Assembly (NCBI GenBank): GCA_014727975.1
Contig: WJMK01000040.1
Span: 1-61,634 of the forward strand
From: Candidatus Micrarchaeota archaeon
GTDB lineage: Archaea; Micrarchaeota; Micrarchaeia; Anstonellales; Bilamarchaeaceae
Length of the DNA stretch: 61,634 nucleotides
Direction: 5' to 3'
Part shown: piece by piece, positions 9,285-36,405 of the stretch
Layout of the letters: each line of letters begins with the position of its first letter
How positions within the stretch are numbered: position 1 is the first letter of the stretch
Translations under genes and position numbers: made by a program
Notes under the pieces: generated by a model
Database searches by the model: none
Told to the model about the DNA's origin: nothing
The model's input: the letters and a program-made list of their open reading frames with translations, nothing else

Positions 9285-11447
9285 ATGAAAGTAGAATCCA
9301 GGCAGATTAAGAAAAATATTCAGGGTACAAATGCACCAAAGAACAGGGCAGAGAGGAGAAGCGCCAAATTCTGGAAAACAGTCAAGAATTCTGCAAAGGC
9401 AGTTGGAAGAACTGCAAAGAGCTTTGGGAGAGTTGCGGGTATTGGTGCAGCCGCATTAGTTCTTGGGAGTTCGCTTGCTGCAAAAAACGCAAAAGCGGAT
9501 GACAGCTGGAAACCTGCGGAGGGCAAGGGCGCAGGGGAGCCTGCACCGGTTGCTACGATATACAGTGAAGATGAGGCAGCAGCTGCACTGAAGGCTGCGG
9601 CAGAAAATCCGGAACTTGAACCTAAAGTAAGAGAGGAAGCGAAGGAAGCTGCGGAGGAGCTTGCAGGAGAGGGGGGAGAGGAGGGAGAAGGAAAGAGCCC
9701 CAAACCCAAAAAGAAAACCCCTTCAAAAAAACCAGAAAAAACTGGCGGAGAGGAAGAAGAGGCACAGACTGCATTCTTCAGCACAAACATGGGGGATTTG
9801 GGAAAATACCTCAAGCTCAATGCTTTGCCAATCCCGGGAATGATGGGCGATAGGGAAGGCTCCGGGGAAGGCAGGCTTGACCAGCCGGTACTTGTTGGGG
9901 TGAACGCACTTGGCAATGAAGCAGGGCATGCAGTATTTGGGAATTTTGGATACCTGAATCTTGTAAGGCTGGACCTTGGGGCAGCAATGTTTACAAACAT
10001 GCCAATGGTGCCGATTGGCAGGTTGATGCTCAGCCCTGAATTCAATGTTCGATATGCCAAGGGAAAAAGCGGGGAAGGAAACGTAAAGGGGGCGTACTAT
10101 GGAAGTGCGGCATTTGCAGGGAACCTGCCTTCCTGGATATACAGTTCCCACTCAGCAGGGCTCGGGTGGAGCCAGTCCATGGGGGAAAACTTCAAGCTCA
10201 GGGTTGCAGGAATTATCGGTGGGGCGCTATCCTATCCGGCATGGGACGACATCTACATGAATTTCAGCACAGGGCTCTCTATGGAGATTGCAAAAACAGT
10301 GCTGCTCTATGGGGCACCTACATGCTACTTTGCGGCTGACAACCCGATGAGAACTGCATACGTGGGATATTATGAGCCCAAGTTCCAGGATGTGGAAGTG
10401 GGATTCCAGGTCATGATGCGCCGGGGAGTAGTGGGCCGTGCATTTGCGGACATAGGCCTTGTGGGGAACGATTACGGGCTATTCAACCGTTACGGATTCA
10501 AGCTCACAAAAGCCATGAGCATTCCTGGCAAGCTGGAAGCAGACTTCTGGGGAACAATCGGAATGACCCAGTGGTCCAATCTTTTCGGGGGAGGGATGGA
10601 CCCTGTGATAATGACCGGGATTAACTTCTCATTTGGGCAGGACAGGTTCAGGCACACCTACAGCTACAGCTACTCATACCTGAGAAGCTTTGACACAAGT
10701 GCCCCTGTAACCGACATTCCGAATTCAACCCATCCCGGGCCATATGGGTTCGGGAGGTCAGGGGACCCGTATTATGACGGACCCATAAACGAGGCGAAGC
10801 AAAGGATGGCGGATTCCGTGAGTTTTGAGCAGTTCAGCAACAGCTATTCGGGGGCATCAACAGAAGAGGTGCTGGTAACTGCAAGGTTCCTGGGCGCATT
10901 CATGGCACAGGTTGCATATGCAAACGACGCATATAACTCGATGACCACCGGGAACATTTTTGACGGGGAGATAAAAAGGATTGCAAATGCAGACCATGAG
11001 CAGATGTTCAGCTACCTGAAATCATACCTCTCCTGGTACCAGAACCACAGCGGGAATGAGCCGCTGCCTGAAAGCCTGAGGGGAGGGATTGCAGTATGTG
11101 CAGGGATACATTCCCTTATTACATCTTACCTGAACGCAAACGGGATAAATGCAGTTACTGCAAGCGTAAATACTCCGAACGGCCCTCACATGGTCACAAT
11201 TGCAAGGCTTGGGGGAAAGAATGTACTCCTGGATTATGGAAGCCAGATTAGCACAGAAGGGGATTTCATGCATATGTACGAAGCATATGGGCAACATACA
11301 GGAGCGCCCACATTCAAATCCCAGATTTACGGAAGGGACGGAAAATATGTTGGGACACTCGATACAAGCATGGAAAGGCTGCTGCGCGGGGCCATAGGCA
11401 TTGACAACAAGGAAGTGCTTCTGAGGAATTACCTGGGAGTATGGTAG
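9285..11447 (+). CDS. Membrane-anchored 720-aa protein: beta-rich central region + C-terminal transglutaminase-like Cys-His-Asp core
   Basis: N-terminal TM (AGIGAAALVLGSSLAA) followed by an acidic/Lys-rich linker. The C-terminus has GIAVCAGIHSL...GINAV...GPHMVTIA...VLLDYG, spaced like a transglutaminase core. Confidence 0.45.
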   Translation: MKVESRQIKKNIQGTNAPKNRAERRSAKFWKTVKNSAKAVGRTAKSFGRVAGIGAAALVLGSSLAAKNAKADDSWKPAEGKGAGEPAPVATIYSEDEAAAALKAAAENPELEPKVREEAKEAAEELAGEGGEEGEGKSPKPKKKTPSKKPEKTGGEEEEAQTAFFSTNMGDLGKYLKLNALPIPGMMGDREGSGEGRLDQPVLVGVNALGNEAGHAVFGNFGYLNLVRLDLGAAMFTNMPMVPIGRLMLSPEFNVRYAKGKSGEGNVKGAYYGSAAFAGNLPSWIYSSHSAGLGWSQSMGENFKLRVAGIIGGALSYPAWDDIYMNFSTGLSMEIAKTVLLYGAPTCYFAADNPMRTAYVGYYEPKFQDVEVGFQVMMRRGVVGRAFADIGLVGNDYGLFNRYGFKLTKAMSIPGKLEADFWGTIGMTQWSNLFGGGMDPVIMTGINFSFGQDRFRHTYSYSYSYLRSFDTSAPVTDIPNSTHPGPYGFGRSGDPYYDGPINEAKQRMADSVSFEQFSNSYSGASTEEVLVTARFLGAFMAQVAYANDAYNSMTTGNIFDGEIKRIANADHEQMFSYLKSYLSWYQNHSGNEPLPESLRGGIAVCAGIHSLITSYLNANGINAVTASVNTPNGPHMVTIARLGGKNVLLDYGSQISTEGDFMHMYEAYGQHTGAPTFKSQIYGRDGKYVGTLDTSMERLLRGAIGIDNKEVLLRNYLGVW

Positions 11448-11509: not shown

Positions 11510-11701
11510 CTAAAGTTTTTCTACGTTTTCTGCTTTTGGTCCCCTGTCACCTTCGGTGACATCAAACTTTACTTTGTCTCCTTCGCGAATTGCTGTTCCT
11601 TCTTTGAGCCCGCTTGCGTGCACAAAGTACTCTTTTCCATCTTCTCCGGCAATGAAGCCAAACCTTTTGACATCATTGAAGAACTTTACTGTTCCTTCCA
11701 T
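11510..11701 (-). CDS. cspA: Cold-shock domain protein
   Basis: MEGTVKFFNDVKRFGFI (RNP1-like) and EYFVHAS (RNP2-like) motifs in a roughly 63-aa CSD. I took the ATG at 11701 as the start rather than the upstream GTG. Confidence 0.9.
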   Translation of the reverse strand: MEGTVKFFNDVKRFGFIAGEDGKEYFVHASGLKEGTAIREGDKVKFDVTEGDRGPKAENVEKL

Positions 11702-11978
11702 TTTCACACCAAACTATACTAACTGTAAAGAGATATGGAACGCAGATGTTTTAATTGTTCCTTTTGGGCAATTCAGTTCTCAATGCGCCTGAATACGTAT
11801 GCTGCTACGGTTGTGGTGAGCGCAAGGAAGCCCAGGCCATCCCCAGAAAACCCAGCAGGAGGCAAGGAACGTTCTGGATATGCTGGAGCTGGGAAGGCAA
11901 AGGGCGGAGGCGCTAAAAATATGGGCAAATTGGAAAAAGGGGCGGGAGGAAGAAAGCGCTCAGGAGATGGCCCTTTTC

Positions 11979-12878
11979 TTACTCCTGGTCAATGAGCTCC
12001 CGATTCAGCCCCTGGCGCTCAAGCTTAGTTTTCAGTTTCCTCGCTGCAAGCGCCACAAGGGAGCGGGCCTTTTCCCTGCTTAATTTCAGGTCTCCTGCGA
12101 TTTCTGAAACGCTTTTTTGTGGAGTGCCGTTAAGCCCAAAACTTGCTTCCAGTGCAGAGCGCTCGAAATCGTTAAGGGAAAAAAGGGCAGAAGAGATGGC
12201 TTTTTTAAGCGAGGCTTTTTCAACGGAAGAAACCGGATTCGGATAGTGTTCCTGCTTCTTCCTGACCCTGGATATGGGGATATAGGGGGCGGAATCCGGC
12301 TCTGCACCTGTTTTTGGGCCTGCCTTTTCTCCGTAAAGGAGGGTGCTTCCGTCCTTTGGGACCCTTGCGTTTTTGTAAATTTCAGATGTCCATTCTATCT
12401 GCCTGGCTTTGGAAAGGGAAATGGCCATGTATGCAGCAAAATCATCTGTCCTCCCCTGGGGATGGTACCTCTTCCAGGTGCGGTATGCAAAAATATCGTT
12501 CCTGGACTCCTGGGTAAAATGCAGGAGGGAATGTGTCTTCTCAAGCACTCTTTTGCAATCCTTCATGCTTTCAACCGCAAAACTGGAAAACTTCCCTTTT
12601 GGGGGCAGCCATTTCCTTGCACTTTTAATGAGCGAAACAAGGCATTCCTGCTCAACATCCTCCATCTGCACCCCGCGCACTAAATCCAGGTTATGCCTGC
12701 GTATTCCCAAGTAGATGAGGCCCTTGTTCTGGAGGGCAAACTCCCCGGGGTCCTTTTGCGCAAATGAGAACCTCTCTATGTCATCTTTTTCTTTTGCAGA
12801 AATAATGCGTGTTGGCTTCATTGGTGCCCTTTTCCGGGGCTGCCTGGGTTTGATTATGGATTTTCCTGGAGATTGCAT
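11979..12878 (-). CDS. Sigma-70-family-like protein (regions 2, 3 and 4 recognisable)
   Basis: Region 2-like block: NKGLIYLGIRRH..MEDVEQECLVSLIKSARKW.PPKGKFSSFAVESM. Region 4.2-like HTH: LNDFERSALEASFGLNGTPQKSVSEIAGDLKLSREKARSLVALAARKLK. Confidence 0.6.
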   Translation of the reverse strand: MQSPGKSIIKPRQPRKRAPMKPTRIISAKEKDDIERFSFAQKDPGEFALQNKGLIYLGIRRHNLDLVRGVQMEDVEQECLVSLIKSARKWLPPKGKFSSFAVESMKDCKRVLEKTHSLLHFTQESRNDIFAYRTWKRYHPQGRTDDFAAYMAISLSKARQIEWTSEIYKNARVPKDGSTLLYGEKAGPKTGAEPDSAPYIPISRVRKKQEHYPNPVSSVEKASLKKAISSALFSLNDFERSALEASFGLNGTPQKSVSEIAGDLKLSREKARSLVALAARKLKTKLERQGLNRELIDQE

Positions 12879-12969
12879 ATGCTGGGATATTAACCGCCGA
12901 AGGGTTTAAATTGCAATATCCGGGCCTTGATAAGCAAGGATTATATTGGTTCTTGCATCGTTATTGCAT

Positions 12970-18454: not shown

Positions 18455-18829
18455 CTAGATTAAGCCGTTCTCGCGGAAAAACTGCTTTGCCTCTGCCAGC
18501 CTTTTCTCCCCGAAACTTGGGAAAAGCCTGAGCTTGTTCTCCCAATCGGGAGTGGAAGAAAGGAACTTTTTCAGGTCTGGAAGAGCCGGGGAAGAAATGC
18601 ATGCTTCCTTTTGGAAGAATTTTTTCAGGAGCCGGTATGTCTGGGTGGAGAGGGAAGAGAAAGGGGAGCGCGACCATTCGCTCCGCTCCTTTTCCCGTGC
18701 ATAAATCTGGTTGAGGCGCTGCCTGCTTATGCCAAGGGACCTTGCGATGCGGGCCCTTGGCTCACCTCCATCAATGCGCATAACTGCCCGGATATTGCGG
18801 CTGCTTTTGCAGGTTGAGGGAAAATTCAT
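18455..18829 (-). CDS. Small DNA-binding protein: N-terminal HTH plus RNAP alpha-CTD-like helix-hairpin-helix
   Basis: The HTH is RARIARSLGISRQRLNQIY. The C-terminal LSTQTYRLLKK...FPSFGEKRLAEAKQFFRENGL resembles alpha-CTD LTVRSANCLK...NLGKKSLTEIKDVLASRGL. Confidence 0.4.
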   Translation of the reverse strand: MNFPSTCKSSRNIRAVMRIDGGEPRARIARSLGISRQRLNQIYAREKERSEWSRSPFSSLSTQTYRLLKKFFQKEACISSPALPDLKKFLSSTPDWENKLRLFPSFGEKRLAEAKQFFRENGLI

Positions 18830-19719
18830 AAATTACCAGCCTTCCTGCCCCCATATGCACGAAGGAGGCGCCTTGCCTTGAGCTGTTTTGGGAGGCTGCG
18901 CATAAATGCGTAGTCCATCGCGGTGCGCCCCTCTCCGTCCTGCTTGTTTACATTTGCGCCTGCGGAAAGCAGGGCAAGGCAGATTTCAAGATGCCCACGG
19001 GATGCAGCCTGCATAAGCGGGGTGACTCCATATCTGTCTCCGGCATCAACATCCGCTCCGCTTTTGATGAGCTTGTTTGCAAGCCCGATATTTCCGCGGG
19101 TTGCAGCCCAAAAAAGAGGCGTTTCCTTTCCGCTAGTGAAAAGGTTTGGGTCTGCTCCAGACTCCAGGAGGAACTCTGCAGCCTCAGGATAGCCATTCCT
19201 TGAAACGTTGAGCAGGGCAGTCCAGCCATCTTCATCCTGTGCATTAATGTCTGCGCCTGCGGAGAGAAGGAACTTCATGAGGGGAATGTTGCCTGTCCTT
19301 GAAACAGAAAGCAGGGGAGTTTCCCCAATCTTCTCATCCCGGGAATCCACGGGCGCCCCTTTCTGGAGGGAATCTTTGAGCCTGCGGATATCGCCCTGCT
19401 TTGCAGACTCCAGTAGTTGCTCTTTAACTTGTTCAGGGTCCACCTGCACAACCGGGGCTCTTTTCTCGGTTGCAGAAAAGGTGGCTGCAAGGGCCCCGGT
19501 GGCAACCGCCACGCTGATTGTGCCTATAATTATGGGTTTCTTGAACCTGCGAAAAGTTTTTGCTGCGGGCTTTTGCAGGCTGTGCAGGAAGCTTCCGGTT
19601 TTGGTTGCCCTGTGCCTGAGCTGCAGCATTGTGTATTTGAGCCGGGTTACCCTGTCCATTTTCTGGGTAGCTTCGGGCATTGGCTCGGTTGGGGCGTCCC
19701 TGCGGGCGGGTTTTTTCAT
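18826..19719 (-). CDS. Membrane-anchored ankyrin-repeat protein
   Basis: TM helix IIIGTISVAVATGALAATF followed by at least 4 ankyrin repeats (G.TPL..A...G......LL..GAD.N pattern). Its stop overlaps the next start as ATGA. Confidence 0.8.
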   Translation of the reverse strand: MKKPARRDAPTEPMPEATQKMDRVTRLKYTMLQLRHRATKTGSFLHSLQKPAAKTFRRFKKPIIIGTISVAVATGALAATFSATEKRAPVVQVDPEQVKEQLLESAKQGDIRRLKDSLQKGAPVDSRDEKIGETPLLSVSRTGNIPLMKFLLSAGADINAQDEDGWTALLNVSRNGYPEAAEFLLESGADPNLFTSGKETPLFWAATRGNIGLANKLIKSGADVDAGDRYGVTPLMQAASRGHLEICLALLSAGANVNKQDGEGRTAMDYAFMRSLPKQLKARRLLRAYGGRKAGNL

Positions 19720-21293: not shown

Positions 21294-22829
21294 TCACTTC
21301 CTTCCTGCAAAAAGCAGTGCTGCAAGCAATATGAATGCGGTCCCGCAGCACTCCTCTCCCCCTGGAGTGGAAACAGGTGTTGCGCCTGCATATGAGGAAA
21401 CCAGGCTGGATGCATCAGGGCCAAGGGAATTGTATTCGCTGGAAACAGTCTGCCCGTTTCCTTCGGTATAAGTTAGCTCTCCGGTGGATTTGTCCAGGGT
21501 GACTACCGAGCCTGCAGGGAAATCCGCAGTATACCATTCCCCTGTCTCCGGGTCCTGGACATCCACATATATTGTGCCTTCAATTGCCTTTACCCCTTCT
21601 TCTGAATTAGTGTTCCAGAGCTGGAAAGCGGTCCCCCTCGCACCTACAAAAAGAGTTTCCATCTTTACGACAAATTCTCGTTCAGCGCTTTTCTCGACCT
21701 TTATCCAGCACTCCCCTTCATTAAGGAAAAACCCTTCAATATCCATTTCGATTACTGTGCCCGGATTGGCAATAAAATAAGAGCCGTCCGGCCACACAAC
21801 CATTGTCCGCTCATTTGTTTTAATCCTGTCATCGAATTCAAGCATTACCTTGTTTCCGGTTAGGGGGGTTCCGCCGCGGGATATTTCCATTGTGGGGCCA
21901 ACTGCCATTGCAACCCTGTCCCCGGAAAAATCCGCGCTGAAGCATGCGCATGAGGGATGCTGGAGCTGAAACTGGGAGGATGGGCAGGAGTTGCTGCACC
22001 TGAGGTCAGATTTGCATCCTTCCCCGGTATATACTGCGGACTCCTGAGTGCACTCCTGGGTTGGGGCCTGGCCCTCAGAAGGGACAGATGCACAGTCAAC
22101 CCCTTCTGCATCACAGCCCTGGGGGCATTCCTCAATATCGCATATGGGCTCCCCATTCTCAGGGTTGCAGTAGCAATTGTAGTAGTGTGTGCTTACGTAG
22201 CATGATTCTTCGGCATAACTATCATAGAAATCTTCGCAATAGTCTGATTCAGGGGCGCTTGCGCACCCTGCATGCGGATTGTCTTCAATGCACCCATGCG
22301 GGCAGGTCTGGATTGGGGTGAGGTCCAATACTTCGCACCTTCCATCCCCAGTGTATTCCATCTCATATAGTTTTCCGTTTATGCATGATGTTGGGCAGGC
22401 ATCGCCCCCTGCATAATCCTCGTACCCTCCCGGATATGGCTCCCCCTCATCGTCGGGGTAAAGGTAATCGCAGTTGGATTCGCAGTTTTCCTTTGTCCTG
22501 CTTGCAGAAAGGATTGCTTCCTCCTTGCAGCAGGCCTGGAGCTGGTCATCGCAACCCGGGCTTCCTTCATCCGTGCAGATTAAGAGCTCCGCAAGGCACT
22601 TTGCCATGTTCGCATAGGGGCCTGAGCCTCCGTAGGTGCTTACGCGCGGGCAGGTTCCCCCATACGTATGGTGCTCGGTGTACATCATCTGGGATGCCAT
22701 GTCTTCTGCTTCAAAAACAGCGGCATCGTAATCTGCCTGGCAATCAGAATAACATTCTGAGCGGGAACCTGCAGAAAAGGAAACTGCTGCGAGGACTAGC
22801 AGTGCAAACAAGGCAAGAGTAGATTTCAT
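21294..22829 (-). CDS. Secreted Cys-rich surface protein with FecR-like domain and C-terminal Cys-Gly/TM/basic anchor
   Basis: Signal peptide, more than 40 Cys, and a FecR-like block (LFVGARGTAFQLWN...IEGTIYV). The C-terminus is GGEECCGTAFILLAALLFAGRK. Confidence 0.5.
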   Translation of the reverse strand: MKSTLALFALLVLAAVSFSAGSRSECYSDCQADYDAAVFEAEDMASQMMYTEHHTYGGTCPRVSTYGGSGPYANMAKCLAELLICTDEGSPGCDDQLQACCKEEAILSASRTKENCESNCDYLYPDDEGEPYPGGYEDYAGGDACPTSCINGKLYEMEYTGDGRCEVLDLTPIQTCPHGCIEDNPHAGCASAPESDYCEDFYDSYAEESCYVSTHYYNCYCNPENGEPICDIEECPQGCDAEGVDCASVPSEGQAPTQECTQESAVYTGEGCKSDLRCSNSCPSSQFQLQHPSCACFSADFSGDRVAMAVGPTMEISRGGTPLTGNKVMLEFDDRIKTNERTMVVWPDGSYFIANPGTVIEMDIEGFFLNEGECWIKVEKSAEREFVVKMETLFVGARGTAFQLWNTNSEEGVKAIEGTIYVDVQDPETGEWYTADFPAGSVVTLDKSTGELTYTEGNGQTVSSEYNSLGPDASSLVSSYAGATPVSTPGGEECCGTAFILLAALLFAGRK

Positions 22830-31540: not shown

Positions 31541-32632
31541 CTACTTGGCCCGGTGCAGGTATTCTGCAACGTCCCTGTGCCCCTCAAGCTCAGCATAATC
31601 CTTCGCATTTTTCCTGTATTTGTCCCTTAGCCTCGGGTTTGCGCCTGCCTTGTGCAGCTCCTTTACTGCTTCAAGGTGGCCCTCCCATGCGGCAAGCATA
31701 ATTGCAGTGCGGTTTTCTTTGTTCCTTGCATTAAGCGCAGGCTTGTTTTTTCCCTTTAGCTTAAGCAGTACCCTCATGCATTTAAGGTGCCCGCACTCTG
31801 CGCAGGCCATAAGCATATTTTCCCCTTTGCTGTCCCTGCGGTCGACATTGCGCATGTACTTTACAAGTTCCTTAAGGAGGCTTATCCTGCCCCTTTCAGC
31901 AACAAACATGAAAAACGGGCGGCCGAACTCGTCCTTGAGGCCTACTGGTGCCCCATGCTCCAGCATTGCGCAGACACTTGAAACAGGCCCGGAAACTGCA
32001 GCTTTGAAAAGGGCTTTCTTTATTGTTCTCTTCCCTTCTGCATCTGCCTGGGCCCATTCCCTGAAAATGGCCGGGGCTGTGGGCTGGCGCGGGGCAGGCT
32101 TTTGGCCGCTTTCTGCCTTTGGCCTGTTGCCCGGGGAAGAGGGACTTTTTGGGGTAAACGCTGAAGGGGTATGCGGAGTGTTTTTCTCATTTGGGCTGCG
32201 GGCAGTGCTTCCGCGGGCAGCAGCAGGTTTTTTGAGGGGTGCACTTTTCCGGGGGGCAGGGGAATGCTCTGCAGGCTTTTGCCCCAGTGTAGATTCGCAG
32301 TGCGCCCTCCATGCGCTGCCTCCATTTCTCCTTACTTCCTGGTGGTAATGGGGAATGCCCATCTCCTCCCAGAGGTCCGGGTTTTTGCGCAGGTGCTCTT
32401 TGAGCTCTTTTGGCGCAAAGCGCCCGAATTCTGTGCGCGTGGTTATCTTTTTCTTTGAGATTAGTTCCCTGCACAAGCCAACAAGCTGTTCCCTTGGGCC
32501 CTGTATCATCCTGCCTATGTCCACTTCCGATAAGGGGTTTGCATATTTTGCCGGAAGCCTCTTTCTCCTGGCTGCCCCCTTCTGGAGCCCTGGCCGGGTT
32601 TCCTTTGCCGGCTTACGAAGTTTGTTTTGCAT
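31541..32632 (-). CDS. Ankyrin-repeat protein with long basic N-terminal region
   Basis: At least 3 C-terminal ankyrin repeats (ENMLMACAECGHLKCMRVLL; RTAIMLAAWEGHLEAVKELHKAGANP). The N-terminus is Lys/Arg/Pro-rich. Confidence 0.8.
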   Translation of the reverse strand: MQNKLRKPAKETRPGLQKGAARRKRLPAKYANPLSEVDIGRMIQGPREQLVGLCRELISKKKITTRTEFGRFAPKELKEHLRKNPDLWEEMGIPHYHQEVRRNGGSAWRAHCESTLGQKPAEHSPAPRKSAPLKKPAAARGSTARSPNEKNTPHTPSAFTPKSPSSPGNRPKAESGQKPAPRQPTAPAIFREWAQADAEGKRTIKKALFKAAVSGPVSSVCAMLEHGAPVGLKDEFGRPFFMFVAERGRISLLKELVKYMRNVDRRDSKGENMLMACAECGHLKCMRVLLKLKGKNKPALNARNKENRTAIMLAAWEGHLEAVKELHKAGANPRLRDKYRKNAKDYAELEGHRDVAEYLHRAK

Positions 32633-35520: not shown

Positions 35521-36405
35521 CTAGCAGTTAATGCCATCAATCCTGTAGCGGAGGCAGCAGCAGGAATATTCCTCACCTCCTGCCTCTATTTCCTTGTAGT
35601 GGTAAGCAGCAACTATTTCCTCGCAATCTTCTTCAGGCTCTAGCGGGTGCCCTTCTATGTATTCCACTGCTTCATCATAGCACTCCCCCTCGTCCATCCC
35701 GGAGCCAAGATAGACATTGTGGCCGATTGAAGGGCAGTACCTGCTGCAGTCCACAGGGCTGGAATCGCAGGAATCTCCCTGGCCGTCCAGGTCATGGTCG
35801 CTTTGCTTTGGGTTGGGGGTTTCAGGGCAGTTGTCTTCATCTCCGCAGACTCCGTCCGAATCCGCATCATTCTGCGGGTCGTTGGGGCAGGAGTCGCACT
35901 CATCTCCAATCCCATCAGAATCTGAATCCAGCTGTTCCCGGTTGCGGGTTCCTGGGCAGTTGTCTTCATTTCCGCAGATTCCGTCTGAATCCGCATCGTT
36001 CTGGAGGTCCAGGGGGCATTCATCGCAGGCATCCCCTTCCCCATCTGAATCCGAATCGTTTTGCCCAGGGTTGTAAACCTGGGGGCAGTTGTCGGACTCG
36101 TCCGGGATGCAGTCGTGGTCCTTGTCCGAGAAGGTTTTCACGCATTCGCAACCCATGCATTCAAAGCAGCCCGGGCAGAGGGTTTCGTTGCTTCCGGGGT
36201 CGCACTCCTCGCCATTGGAAAGGATGCCGTCCCCGCATGCCGGCTCGGTAATGGGGGTCTCTTCTGCTGAATCCATTGGGGGCTCTTCTGCAGGGGTTTC
36301 CTGAACTGGAGGGGCCTCGGCTGCAGGAGTAGCTTCCTCTGCAGGAACCAGGCTGCAGCACCCGGAAAAAAACAGGATTGCGAAGAGAAAAACAGGAAAT
36401 CTCAT
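35521..36405 (-). CDS. Lipoprotein with thrombospondin type-3 (Ca-binding) repeats
   Basis: Lipobox FFSGC and an acidic stalk, followed by iterated DxDxDGxxDxCDxCP units (NDSDSDGEGDACDECP, LDSDSDGIGDECDSCP, NDADSDGVCGDEDNCP). Confidence 0.75.
   Translation of the reverse strand: MRFPVFLFAILFFSGCCSLVPAEEATPAAEAPPVQETPAEEPPMDSAEETPITEPACGDGILSNGEECDPGSNETLCPGCFECMGCECVKTFSDKDHDCIPDESDNCPQVYNPGQNDSDSDGEGDACDECPLDLQNDADSDGICGNEDNCPGTRNREQLDSDSDGIGDECDSCPNDPQNDADSDGVCGDEDNCPETPNPKQSDHDLDGQGDSCDSSPVDCSRYCPSIGHNVYLGSGMDEGECYDEAVEYIEGHPLEPEEDCEEIVAAYHYKEIEAGGEEYSCCCLRYRIDGINC

Follow-up and report, generated by a model that had tools for sequence, protein, structure and literature searches.

A sigma-70-family protein resident in a Micrarchaeota lineage, possibly re-tooled for archaeal RNA polymerase

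Sigma factors and the TBP/TFB pair are the textbook features by which bacterial and archaeal transcription initiation are told apart, and a sigma-70-like gene on an archaeal contig raises the question whether such a protein genuinely belongs to its host and, if so, what it could do there. The locus considered here lies on a 61,634-nucleotide (nt) stretch of DNA from a Candidatus Micrarchaeota archaeon, a small symbiont (contig WJMK01000040.1, positions 1 to 61,634); this stretch as a whole we call the window. An initial annotation, made from the sequence alone, had described in it a full-length homologue of bacterial sigma factors within an otherwise archaeal-style locus and had called the protein repurposed or degenerate. 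The open reading frame (ORF) it pointed to and the sequence blocks it quoted are present verbatim, and we refer to the encoded protein as P0001 (Table 1). From the evidence set out below we are nearly certain that P0001 is a genuine sigma-70-family protein residing in an archaeon, and as to its role we favour, tentatively and with less than even confidence, a re-tooled promoter-specificity factor that docks on archaeal RNA polymerase (RNAP).

Profile searches matched both sigma region 2 and sigma region 4. P0001 scored 25.5 bits with Pfam Sigma70_r4 (PF04545; gathering score 24.1; residues 231-283) and 23.2 bits with Sigma70_r2 (PF04542; gathering score 24, thus marginally under; residues 66-102), a family for which its orthologues carry a precomputed match. 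Sigma70_r4 matched 20/20 relatives and Sigma70_r2 12/20, and Sigma70_r3 (PF04539) gave no match in P0001 or in any relative (0/20). The NCBIfam sigma-70 superfamily model TIGR02937 was passed over residues 66-286 (43.5 versus a cut-off of 42.9), whereas the RpoS equivalog TIGR02394 (51.3 versus 378.7) and RpoD_Cterm (41.1 versus 354) matched the C-terminal part only; region 2 weakly matched the FliA/WhiG and SigB/F/G models, and the subfamily cut-offs were all missed widely. In a phmmer search of the PDB, region 4 of P0001 resembled that of E. coli RpoS (E = 4e-7), and a 20-member family profile reached SigA (E = 1.6e-36), with cyanobacterial and Firmicute SigA both at E ~1e-36. Because this profile aligns with SigA from region 1.2/2.1 through 3.1 and again over region 4, the ancestor of P0001 was a sigma factor with a sigma3 domain. 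Two AlphaFold models, built on alignments of 7 sequences (mean predicted local distance difference test, pLDDT, 70.5) and 26 sequences (77.7), agree on a disordered basic tail, sigma2, sigma3, a largely disordered linker and sigma4. When the models were compared with known structures by Foldseek, all of the 50 matches listed per model were sigma factors or integrative sigma-RNAP models (SigA, RpoS, sigma-32); the alignments spanned ~277 columns, the best E was 1.9e-8 and TM (template-modelling) scores were 0.41-0.46. The full-length homology first proposed from the letters alone is therefore borne out by Pfam, NCBIfam, the PDB search, AlphaFold and Foldseek together for sigma2 and sigma4, and probably for sigma3.

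The predicted helices fall into three folded domains: H28-42, H44-50, H53-61, H72-89 and H97-115 in sigma2; H123-138, H144-151 and H155-170 in sigma3; and H215-233, H237-247, H257-264 and H268-288 in sigma4. In place of the region-3-like spacer described initially, the models have a sigma3-like domain, folded into three helices, and after it a long linker. This linker exceeds the bacterial length, since bacterial sequences are gapped at P0001 residues 177-188 and 194-202 in a joint alignment, and it opens with the motif PKDGSTLLYGE, in which P174, K175, G177, S178, L181, Y182, G183 and E184 are invariant in 7/7 sequences. P174 aligns with the proline of the bacterial SLDxP consensus, which opens region 3.2, and distant archaeal-type relatives retain 'P.....lfys' at the same position. 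The basic N-terminal extension noted initially is equally real (Table 1), and distant relatives likewise have basic tails that contain an FPKKTH-like motif. P0001 is also basic overall, with an isoelectric point (pI) of 9.9, and its N-terminus has no hydrophobic signal peptide.

Table 1. Coordinates of the sigma gene, of the parts of its product and of its promoter element in the window
Feature	Position	Strand	Characteristics and evidence
Coding sequence of P0001, sigma-70-family protein, 299 amino acids (aa)	11979..12878	-	ATG start; ORF list, homology, dN/dS (nonsynonymous to synonymous substitution ratio)
Basic disordered N-terminal tail, aa 1-27	12798..12878	-	8 K/R, 0 D/E, calculated pI ~12; pLDDT 51-58
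Sigma2, aa 28-120 (region 1.2-like helix and regions 2.1-2.4)	12519..12797	-	pLDDT 83-94; profile aligns SigA 1.2-2.4
Sigma3-like three-helix domain, aa 123-171	12366..12512	-	pLDDT 89-94; aligns SigA regions 3.0/3.1
Long linker at region 3.2 position, aa 172-214, mostly disordered	12237..12365	-	pLDDT 44-60
Motif PKDGSTLLYGE, aa 174-184, where the bacterial sigma finger begins	12327..12359	-	Most conserved stretch of the subfamily
Sigma4, aa 215-288 (regions 4.1 and 4.2 with helix-turn-helix, HTH)	12015..12236	-	Pfam Sigma70_r4, RpoS region 4 match
TATA box AATTTAAA, the gene's own promoter	12905..12912	-	-34..-27 from ATG; leaderless or near-leaderless mRNA

Residue by residue, P0001 keeps much of the sigma scaffold and replaces several of its working parts. 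We take the equivalences to be those of E. coli sigma-70 numbering, as placed via the PDB and profile alignments. The region 2.1 core is kept (N51, L54), as are D74 (=D403), Q77 (=Q406), E78 (=E407), L83 (=L412), K85 (=K414), K89 (=K418), F97-S98 and R110 (=R441), and sigma4 retains ER, FGLNG, the S-R-E-x-x-R series (=T583, R584, E585, R588) and KLK. In the core-binding region 2.2, G408 is replaced by C79, N409 by L80 and G411 by S82, such that the QEGNxGL of bacterial sigma factors reads QECLVSL; in the wider archaeal-type set described below QEGNxGL is unconserved, only D and SL being kept. Further on, F419 is W, Y425 and T440 are deleted, and the residues of -10 recognition and melting are changed (T429 to S, Y430 to F, W433 to E, W434 to S and Q437 to D, so that WWIRQ becomes ESMKD), as are the extended -10 readers H455 and E458 (to E and N). 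The replacement of the aromatic YATWWIRQ cluster that had first drawn attention to the protein is thus real. The WW dyad is missing from group 3 and 4 sigma factors too, which nonetheless melt DNA, and the loss of the dyad alone is for this reason weak evidence; since these groups deviate in -10 residues too, melting of the group 1/2 type is excluded for P0001, but sigma function as such is not. The loss of QEGNxGL in the archaeal-type set, which the initial annotation had overlooked, tells more than the loss of the dyad.

In a search of 5.8 billion proteins, the nearest relatives of P0001 were five proteins at 54-62% identity, one of which NCBI names 'sigma-70 family RNA polymerase sigma factor [Candidatus Micrarchaeota archaeon]'. 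Within GTDB contigs taken at one genome per species, the family is confined to three metagenome-assembled genomes (MAGs) of the Micrarchaeota/Micrarchaeia, and a genome scan with the single P0001 sequence as query returned no match. The gene order ATP-dependent DNA ligase, PolX, amino-acid permease, sigma, cold-shock protein and a 640-720-aa protein of unknown function is shared by independent assemblies drawn from NCBI, ENA and GTDB records, three of them Micrarchaeota MAGs, and across these syntenic loci the identity of the sigma proteins (59-62%) is close to that of the neighbouring genes (50-69%). By composition the gene is typical of the window, as a consistency check of the kind proposed initially confirmed: its codon-usage distance from the rest ranks 14 of 41 genes, its tetranucleotide distance stands at the 1.5th percentile of 900-nt windows, nearer the window mean than 98% of them, and the GC content is flat across the region. 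Three tRNAs lie in the window, and contigs of more distant relatives bear archaeal markers, among them the resolvase Hjc and two enzymes of the archaeal mevalonate pathway, AcnX and UbiD. The archaeal character of the locus accordingly stands, with orthologous loci in Micrarchaeota MAGs and TATA and leaderless promoters across the window, and the bacterial mis-assembly that might have explained it away is excluded by synteny in independent assemblies and by the typical codon and tetranucleotide composition. The sigma gene has been vertically inherited in this Micrarchaeota (DPANN) lineage.

The promoter of the sigma gene is itself archaeal in kind. The 45 nt before its ATG are almost invariant among orthologues (GATTGyTGTAATTTAAACCCTTCG...TTA.TA..CCA), and the TATA core is invariant in three orthologous loci despite a different upstream gene, a divergent msrA in the window versus a co-directional permease in the other loci. 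Upstream of the 51 long ORFs of the window, TATA-like hexamers start at -30 to -26 in 28 cases, A+T content is highest between -30 and -21 relative to the ATG, and a Shine-Dalgarno-like site is found in 5/51 genes; this is the pattern of archaeal leaderless mRNAs with TATA boxes, and the position of AATTTAAA agrees with the window-wide TATA peak. The promoter being of the ordinary TBP/TFB type, the sigma gene is presumably transcribed by the archaeal machinery. A sigma-70-like promoter before the gene, TTGCAA-N18-TAATAT, was considered and rejected: it agrees with the consensus at 8/12 positions, overlaps the TATA box and the A/T-rich -10 region that archaeal promoters have in common, and was not reported by the promoter scanner. 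An extended promoter motif, GTAATTTAAACCCTTCG, was likewise discarded as a regulon signature, as it is found once only in the window. The 67-nt gap between the sigma gene and msrA (12879-12945) holds a single near-palindromic TATA element that reads AATTTAAA on one strand and TTTAAATT on the other and could act in both directions. For msrA, the annotated TTG start probably lies too far upstream; the conserved GAGCFWG motif is preceded by an ATG eight codons further in.

Selection has acted on the whole of P0001. Among four orthologues the dN/dS ratio (Nei-Gojobori) is 0.17-0.28 overall, 0.11-0.36 in sigma2, 0.18-0.36 in sigma3, 0.11-0.15 in the linker and 0.15-0.30 in sigma4, the N-terminal tail alone being relaxed (0.4-1.0). 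The reading frame is intact in 7/7 subfamily members over 54-62% divergence, and the seven-sequence alignment has 62 invariant positions. The whole protein, and not the HTH alone, is thus maintained. Of the two words first chosen for it, 'repurposed' remains plausible, whereas 'degenerate' is contradicted by the purifying selection in all domains and by new conserved residues found family-wide. For the same reasons a decaying, functionless relic of an old transfer appears highly improbable: the loss of canonical functional motifs and the marginal Pfam scores would suit such a relic, but the intact frames, the low dN/dS, the invariant positions and the conserved promoter would not.

How far the protein extends beyond its nearest orthologues was seen in a HMMER search of 1.84 billion cluster representatives, which gave 26,476 matches at E <= 1e-3, nearly all of them ordinary bacterial sigma factors. 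Among the best 150 of these 26,476 matches is an archaeal-type set of ~24 proteins of 250-360 aa, aligned end to end with the query. Its derived characters are the basic N-terminal tail (often with FPKKTH), W for F419 and a one-residue deletion at Y425. 'M-[RK]-x-C' stands in place of WWIRQ, Y132, W135, P140 and F147-A148 are conserved in sigma3, 'P.....lfys' follows straight after sigma3, and W46, W90 and C108 are newly conserved as well. Among the shared residues are N51, L54, D74, S82-L83, A87, G95, F97-S98, R110, RFGL-G and KLR. Of the five named members, four (P0002, P0064, P0166, P0172) are Micrarchaeota and one (P0021) is labelled '[bacterium]' only. Two contigs, L012 (307-1167 and 1203-2138) and L014 (10001-10861 and 11335-13434), carry two sigma-like genes each, and one MAG holds a syntenic orthologue together with a second sigma copy. 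The neighbouring genes on L012 and L014 look archaeal; on L012 the pair is adjacent and followed by a DUF498 gene, and on L014 the DUF498 gene lies between the two, the second of which encodes a 699-aa protein with a long N-terminal extension.

Neighbour-joining recovered the archaeal-type clade in 31/100 bootstraps (54/100 with two borderline proteins) and the window subfamily in 91/100; a phylogeny of the sort suggested at the outset could name no bacterial donor. The shared indel and motifs are better evidence of common descent than this tree. The relatives appear to form a deep, divergent group, mostly Micrarchaeota, and not the product of recent transfer. A degenerate DNA pattern search brought up three clearly archaeal-type loci only. 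Apart from the set, a tight group of 243-282-aa sigma-like proteins marked by LLRAIDGWDPTKGALSTYAYQWI occurs on metagenome contigs L015, L018, L022, L026, L028, L029, L031-L033, L040, L041, L043, L045, L050 and L051; it has W for F419 and the one-residue deletion as in the archaeal-type set, but keeps W in region 2.3. Other strong profile matches (P0008, P0009, P0011-P0014 and others) are proteins of 550-1700 aa with 6-12 tandem sigma4-like HTH repeats, one of which (L013 8001-9944) lies among toxin-antitoxin and acetyltransferase genes with no clear taxonomic signal.

What could such a protein do in an archaeal cell? It leaves two options: either the sigma scaffold is adaptable to archaeal polymerase, or a whole multi-domain scaffold is used without a polymerase. 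We favour docking on archaeal RNAP, in the tentative manner stated above, because all of the polymerase-spanning modules (sigma2, sigma3, the linker with its finger motif, and sigma4) are under selection, because the beta-prime-contacting surface of bacterial sigma factors has not simply drifted here but has given way to new conserved residues, and because bacterial sigma factors on their own, without the core enzyme, are poor binders of promoter DNA. Loss of a partner is not expected to add conserved residues, and for this reason a changed partner surface fits the new ones. In the mechanism that we propose, DNA would be read by sigma4, and perhaps also by sigma2 and sigma3, region 2.2 with its re-modelled surface would touch the homologous coiled-coil of the Rpo1 clamp, and the PKDGSxLLYGE motif of the linker would occupy the cleft or the RNA-exit path, like the sigma finger or the B-reader of TFB. 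P0001 might in this way direct or modulate initiation at a subset of promoters, with paralogues on other contigs as alternative specificities; such a diversification of promoter specificity fits the two copies on some contigs and the variable recognition helix among orthologues. A wider form of the proposal, that the mostly micrarchaeal, sigma-70-derived set as a whole has been re-fitted to archaeal RNAP and provides a TFB-independent or TFB-competing second route of initiation, we consider possible but doubtful; the PKDGSxLLYGE 'finger' would then replace the bacterial sigma finger or the TFB B-reader, and the paralogues would be alternative specificity factors.

Several points count against docking. 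P0001 no longer has the residues by which the -10 element is read and wedged open. The equivalents of R584, E585 and R588 differ even among close orthologues (R/K/S, E/D/G/N and R/I/Q/K), and sigma-70-consensus promoters are not enriched in the window, with 60 observed versus 55 ± 9 simulated. The re-modelled core-binding surface is itself a conjecture, since the equivalents of Q406, E407 and N409 are unconserved in the wider set, and the Foldseek TM-scores are modest because the arrangement of the domains is uncertain. Finally, a bacterial-like placement would put sigma4 at about -35, where TFB and TBP bind the B recognition element (BRE) and TATA, and the two systems could therefore clash.

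The strongest competitor, which we hold to be a possibility of the more doubtful kind, is an RNAP-independent regulator whose sigma4 HTH, possibly together with sigma2/sigma3 helices and the basic tail, would bind operators and repress or activate TBP/TFB-dependent promoters, much like further HTH regulators of bacterial type in archaea. Sigma4 is indeed the best-conserved module by the Pfam counts among the 20 relatives, the core-binding and DNA-melting motifs are lost, and both the protein and above all its tail are basic. No anti-sigma gene and no conserved operon partner was found at the P0001 locus or at 8 related loci, AcnX, Hjc and DUF498 being common to one relative group only, and PMC8204110 likewise found no anti-sigma factor; PMC2995911 describes archaeal transcription as generally under bacteria-like regulators. 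Nevertheless, purifying selection is as strong on sigma2, sigma3 and the linker motif as on sigma4, and since these parts are constrained and carry set-specific conserved residues, a role of the HTH alone is hard to explain. The poor promoter binding of free bacterial sigma factors speaks against this reading as well.

A canonical sigma factor serving a bacterial-type RNAP is very unlikely, whether the genes for that polymerase lay in another part of the genome or on a mobile element, or the polymerase were that of a bacterial partner cell to which P0001 is delivered. P0001 has the fold and the domain order of sigma factors that form holoenzymes, and the relative P0021 comes from a MAG labelled '[bacterium]' only, but no bacterial rpo gene lies within the 61.6-kb window, the QEGNxGL and WW motifs for binding and melting with the bacterial core are lost, and delivery to a partner finds no hydrophobic signal peptide to rely on. 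In addition, sigma-carrying DPANN genomes have TBP, TFB and TFE (PMC8204110), and the sole Micrarchaeota host met in our literature search (PMC8975820) is a Thermoplasmatales archaeon. We give as little credence as to a relic to the idea that P0001 belongs as sigma factor to a defence system or to an integrated virus or plasmid: the weak match to the phage sigma family phrog_351 and those to the defence sigma MzaA (18.9 bits in PADLOC; 27.1 bits versus a cut-off of 800 in NCBIfam) span the generic sigma core only, the surrounding genes have housekeeping roles (permease, MsrA, PolX, DNA ligase, Csp) and keep their order, the flanking genes have no notable defence-system match in PADLOC, and in composition the gene is typical of the window. 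Nothing but the bacterial ancestry of the family speaks for an artefact of assembly or binning, or for a very recent transfer, and this reading has a negligible chance beside the same neighbours in independent NCBI, ENA and GTDB assemblies, the typical composition with flat GC and an archaeal TATA promoter conserved in orthologues.

Around the sigma gene we made some further observations. A 65-aa bacterial-type cold-shock protein (CspA/CspE-like; 11510-11707, minus strand) is encoded 270 nt downstream and scores 65 bits with the CspE model, under its cut-off; the cold-shock-domain gene also stands in the syntenic block of L001 and L002, and two 'bacterial' nucleic-acid-binding proteins therefore co-travel in an archaeal lineage. 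The 270-nt stretch from the sigma stop to the csp start (11708-11978) is without a convincing gene, and it has neither an Rfam family match nor similarity to the neighbouring gene of the orthologous loci. In those loci (L001 4229-4750, minus strand, with equivalents in L002-L004) that neighbour is a convergent gene for a 173-174-aa protein with HEAT-like repeats (PGKIREMAGE...), which overlaps the sigma stop by 4 nt and is followed in L001 and L002 by an ABC transporter pair; neither adjoins the sigma gene of the window, which has msrA upstream instead. An 86-aa ORF (11735-11995, plus strand) was rejected as a remnant of this 174-aa gene, as the two have no similarity. Beside the sigma block of every related locus is a protein, conserved at ~50% identity, which in the window has 720 aa (9285-11447, plus strand), an N-terminal membrane segment and a Glu/Lys-rich region, and no Pfam, NCBIfam or PADLOC match. 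A FecR-domain protein 9 kb away (21294-22829, minus strand; 511 aa, FecR domain at aa 336-420) was rejected as an anti-sigma factor: with its N-terminal signal peptide, Cys-rich extracellular body and C-terminal hydrophobic anchor it looks secreted or surface-bound, and it has no cytoplasmic anti-sigma domain. Elsewhere in the window, 18826-19719, 31541-32632 and 35521-36405 (all minus strand) encode two ankyrin-repeat proteins and a thrombospondin type 3 repeat protein, the last with the most deviant codon usage of the window (distance 1.18 versus 0.17-0.53).

Were P0001 to work with archaeal polymerase, it would bear on proposals that sigma and TFB are related and would show how exchangeable initiation factors are, and a TFB-independent or TFB-competing route would amount to a naturally occurring hybrid between bacterial and archaeal modes of initiation. 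The locus offers experimental material for deciding this, namely a compact 299-aa protein, its orthologues and a list of set-specific residues that can be mutated (W90, C108, PKDGSxLLYGE). Sigma-70 genes in DPANN have been reported before (PMC8204110), and NCBI already names the orthologues sigma-70 family, so that the locus is no first sighting and its value lies in making an open question testable. New here are the synteny and purifying selection established for the lineage, the conserved TATA promoter of the gene itself, and a mostly micrarchaeal set with consistently lost and gained motifs and with two copies on some contigs.

Among the closest known systems, one that matches by description is the family fam00359 of sigma-70-classified genes on genuine archaeal DPANN contigs, especially of Woesearchaeota; its authors ruled out mis-binning, saw no anti-sigma factor and called the mechanism unclear (Castelle et al. 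2021, PMC8204110). P0001 appears to be the same phenomenon, although that report stresses Woesearchaeota and gives no anatomy, while the named relatives of P0001 are Micrarchaeota; besides it, our literature search found no other paper on archaeal sigma-70 genes and no functional study. Nuclear-encoded plastid sigma factors and phage sigma factors (phrog_351) are precedents for a sigma-70 outside a bacterial chromosome. Both still serve a bacterial-type polymerase, the plastid-encoded polymerase (PEP) or that of the bacterial host, whereas none is known for P0001. TFB and sigma are functional analogues, in that they bridge promoter DNA at about -35 (BRE versus the -35 element) and thread a linker towards the active site (B-reader or sigma finger). 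P0001 is nevertheless no member of the TFB/TFIIB family: it is without Zn-ribbon and cyclin fold, has no TFIIB-family Pfam match, and found no TFB among the 50 Foldseek matches listed per model. With the group 3/4 sigma factors, including those of extracytoplasmic function (ECF), P0001 shares the absence of the WW dyad and of region 1.1, and TIGR02937, which it passes, is named 'sigma70-ECF' by NCBI. ECF sigma factors consist of sigma2 and sigma4 without sigma3, usually with a cognate anti-sigma gene, whereas P0001 has a sigma3 domain and no anti-sigma gene nearby, and its architecture is thus not theirs. From the bacterial group 1/2 sigma-70 factors (RpoD/SigA, RpoS), whose full-length equivalog models it does not pass, P0001 differs in having a short basic tail in place of region 1.1 and the non-conserved insert, a QEGNxGL partly kept as QECLVSL, a longer linker with a conserved motif of its own, and a host whose promoters are archaeal and which is not known to have a bacterial core polymerase. 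Even so, these are its best matches in sequence and structure: they share with it D403, K414, K418, F427-S428, R441, RFGL-G and the KLR end of region 4.2, the wider archaeal-type set also keeps their SRERxRQI, and region 1.2/sigma2, sigma3, the region 3.2 linker and sigma4 follow one another in the same order.

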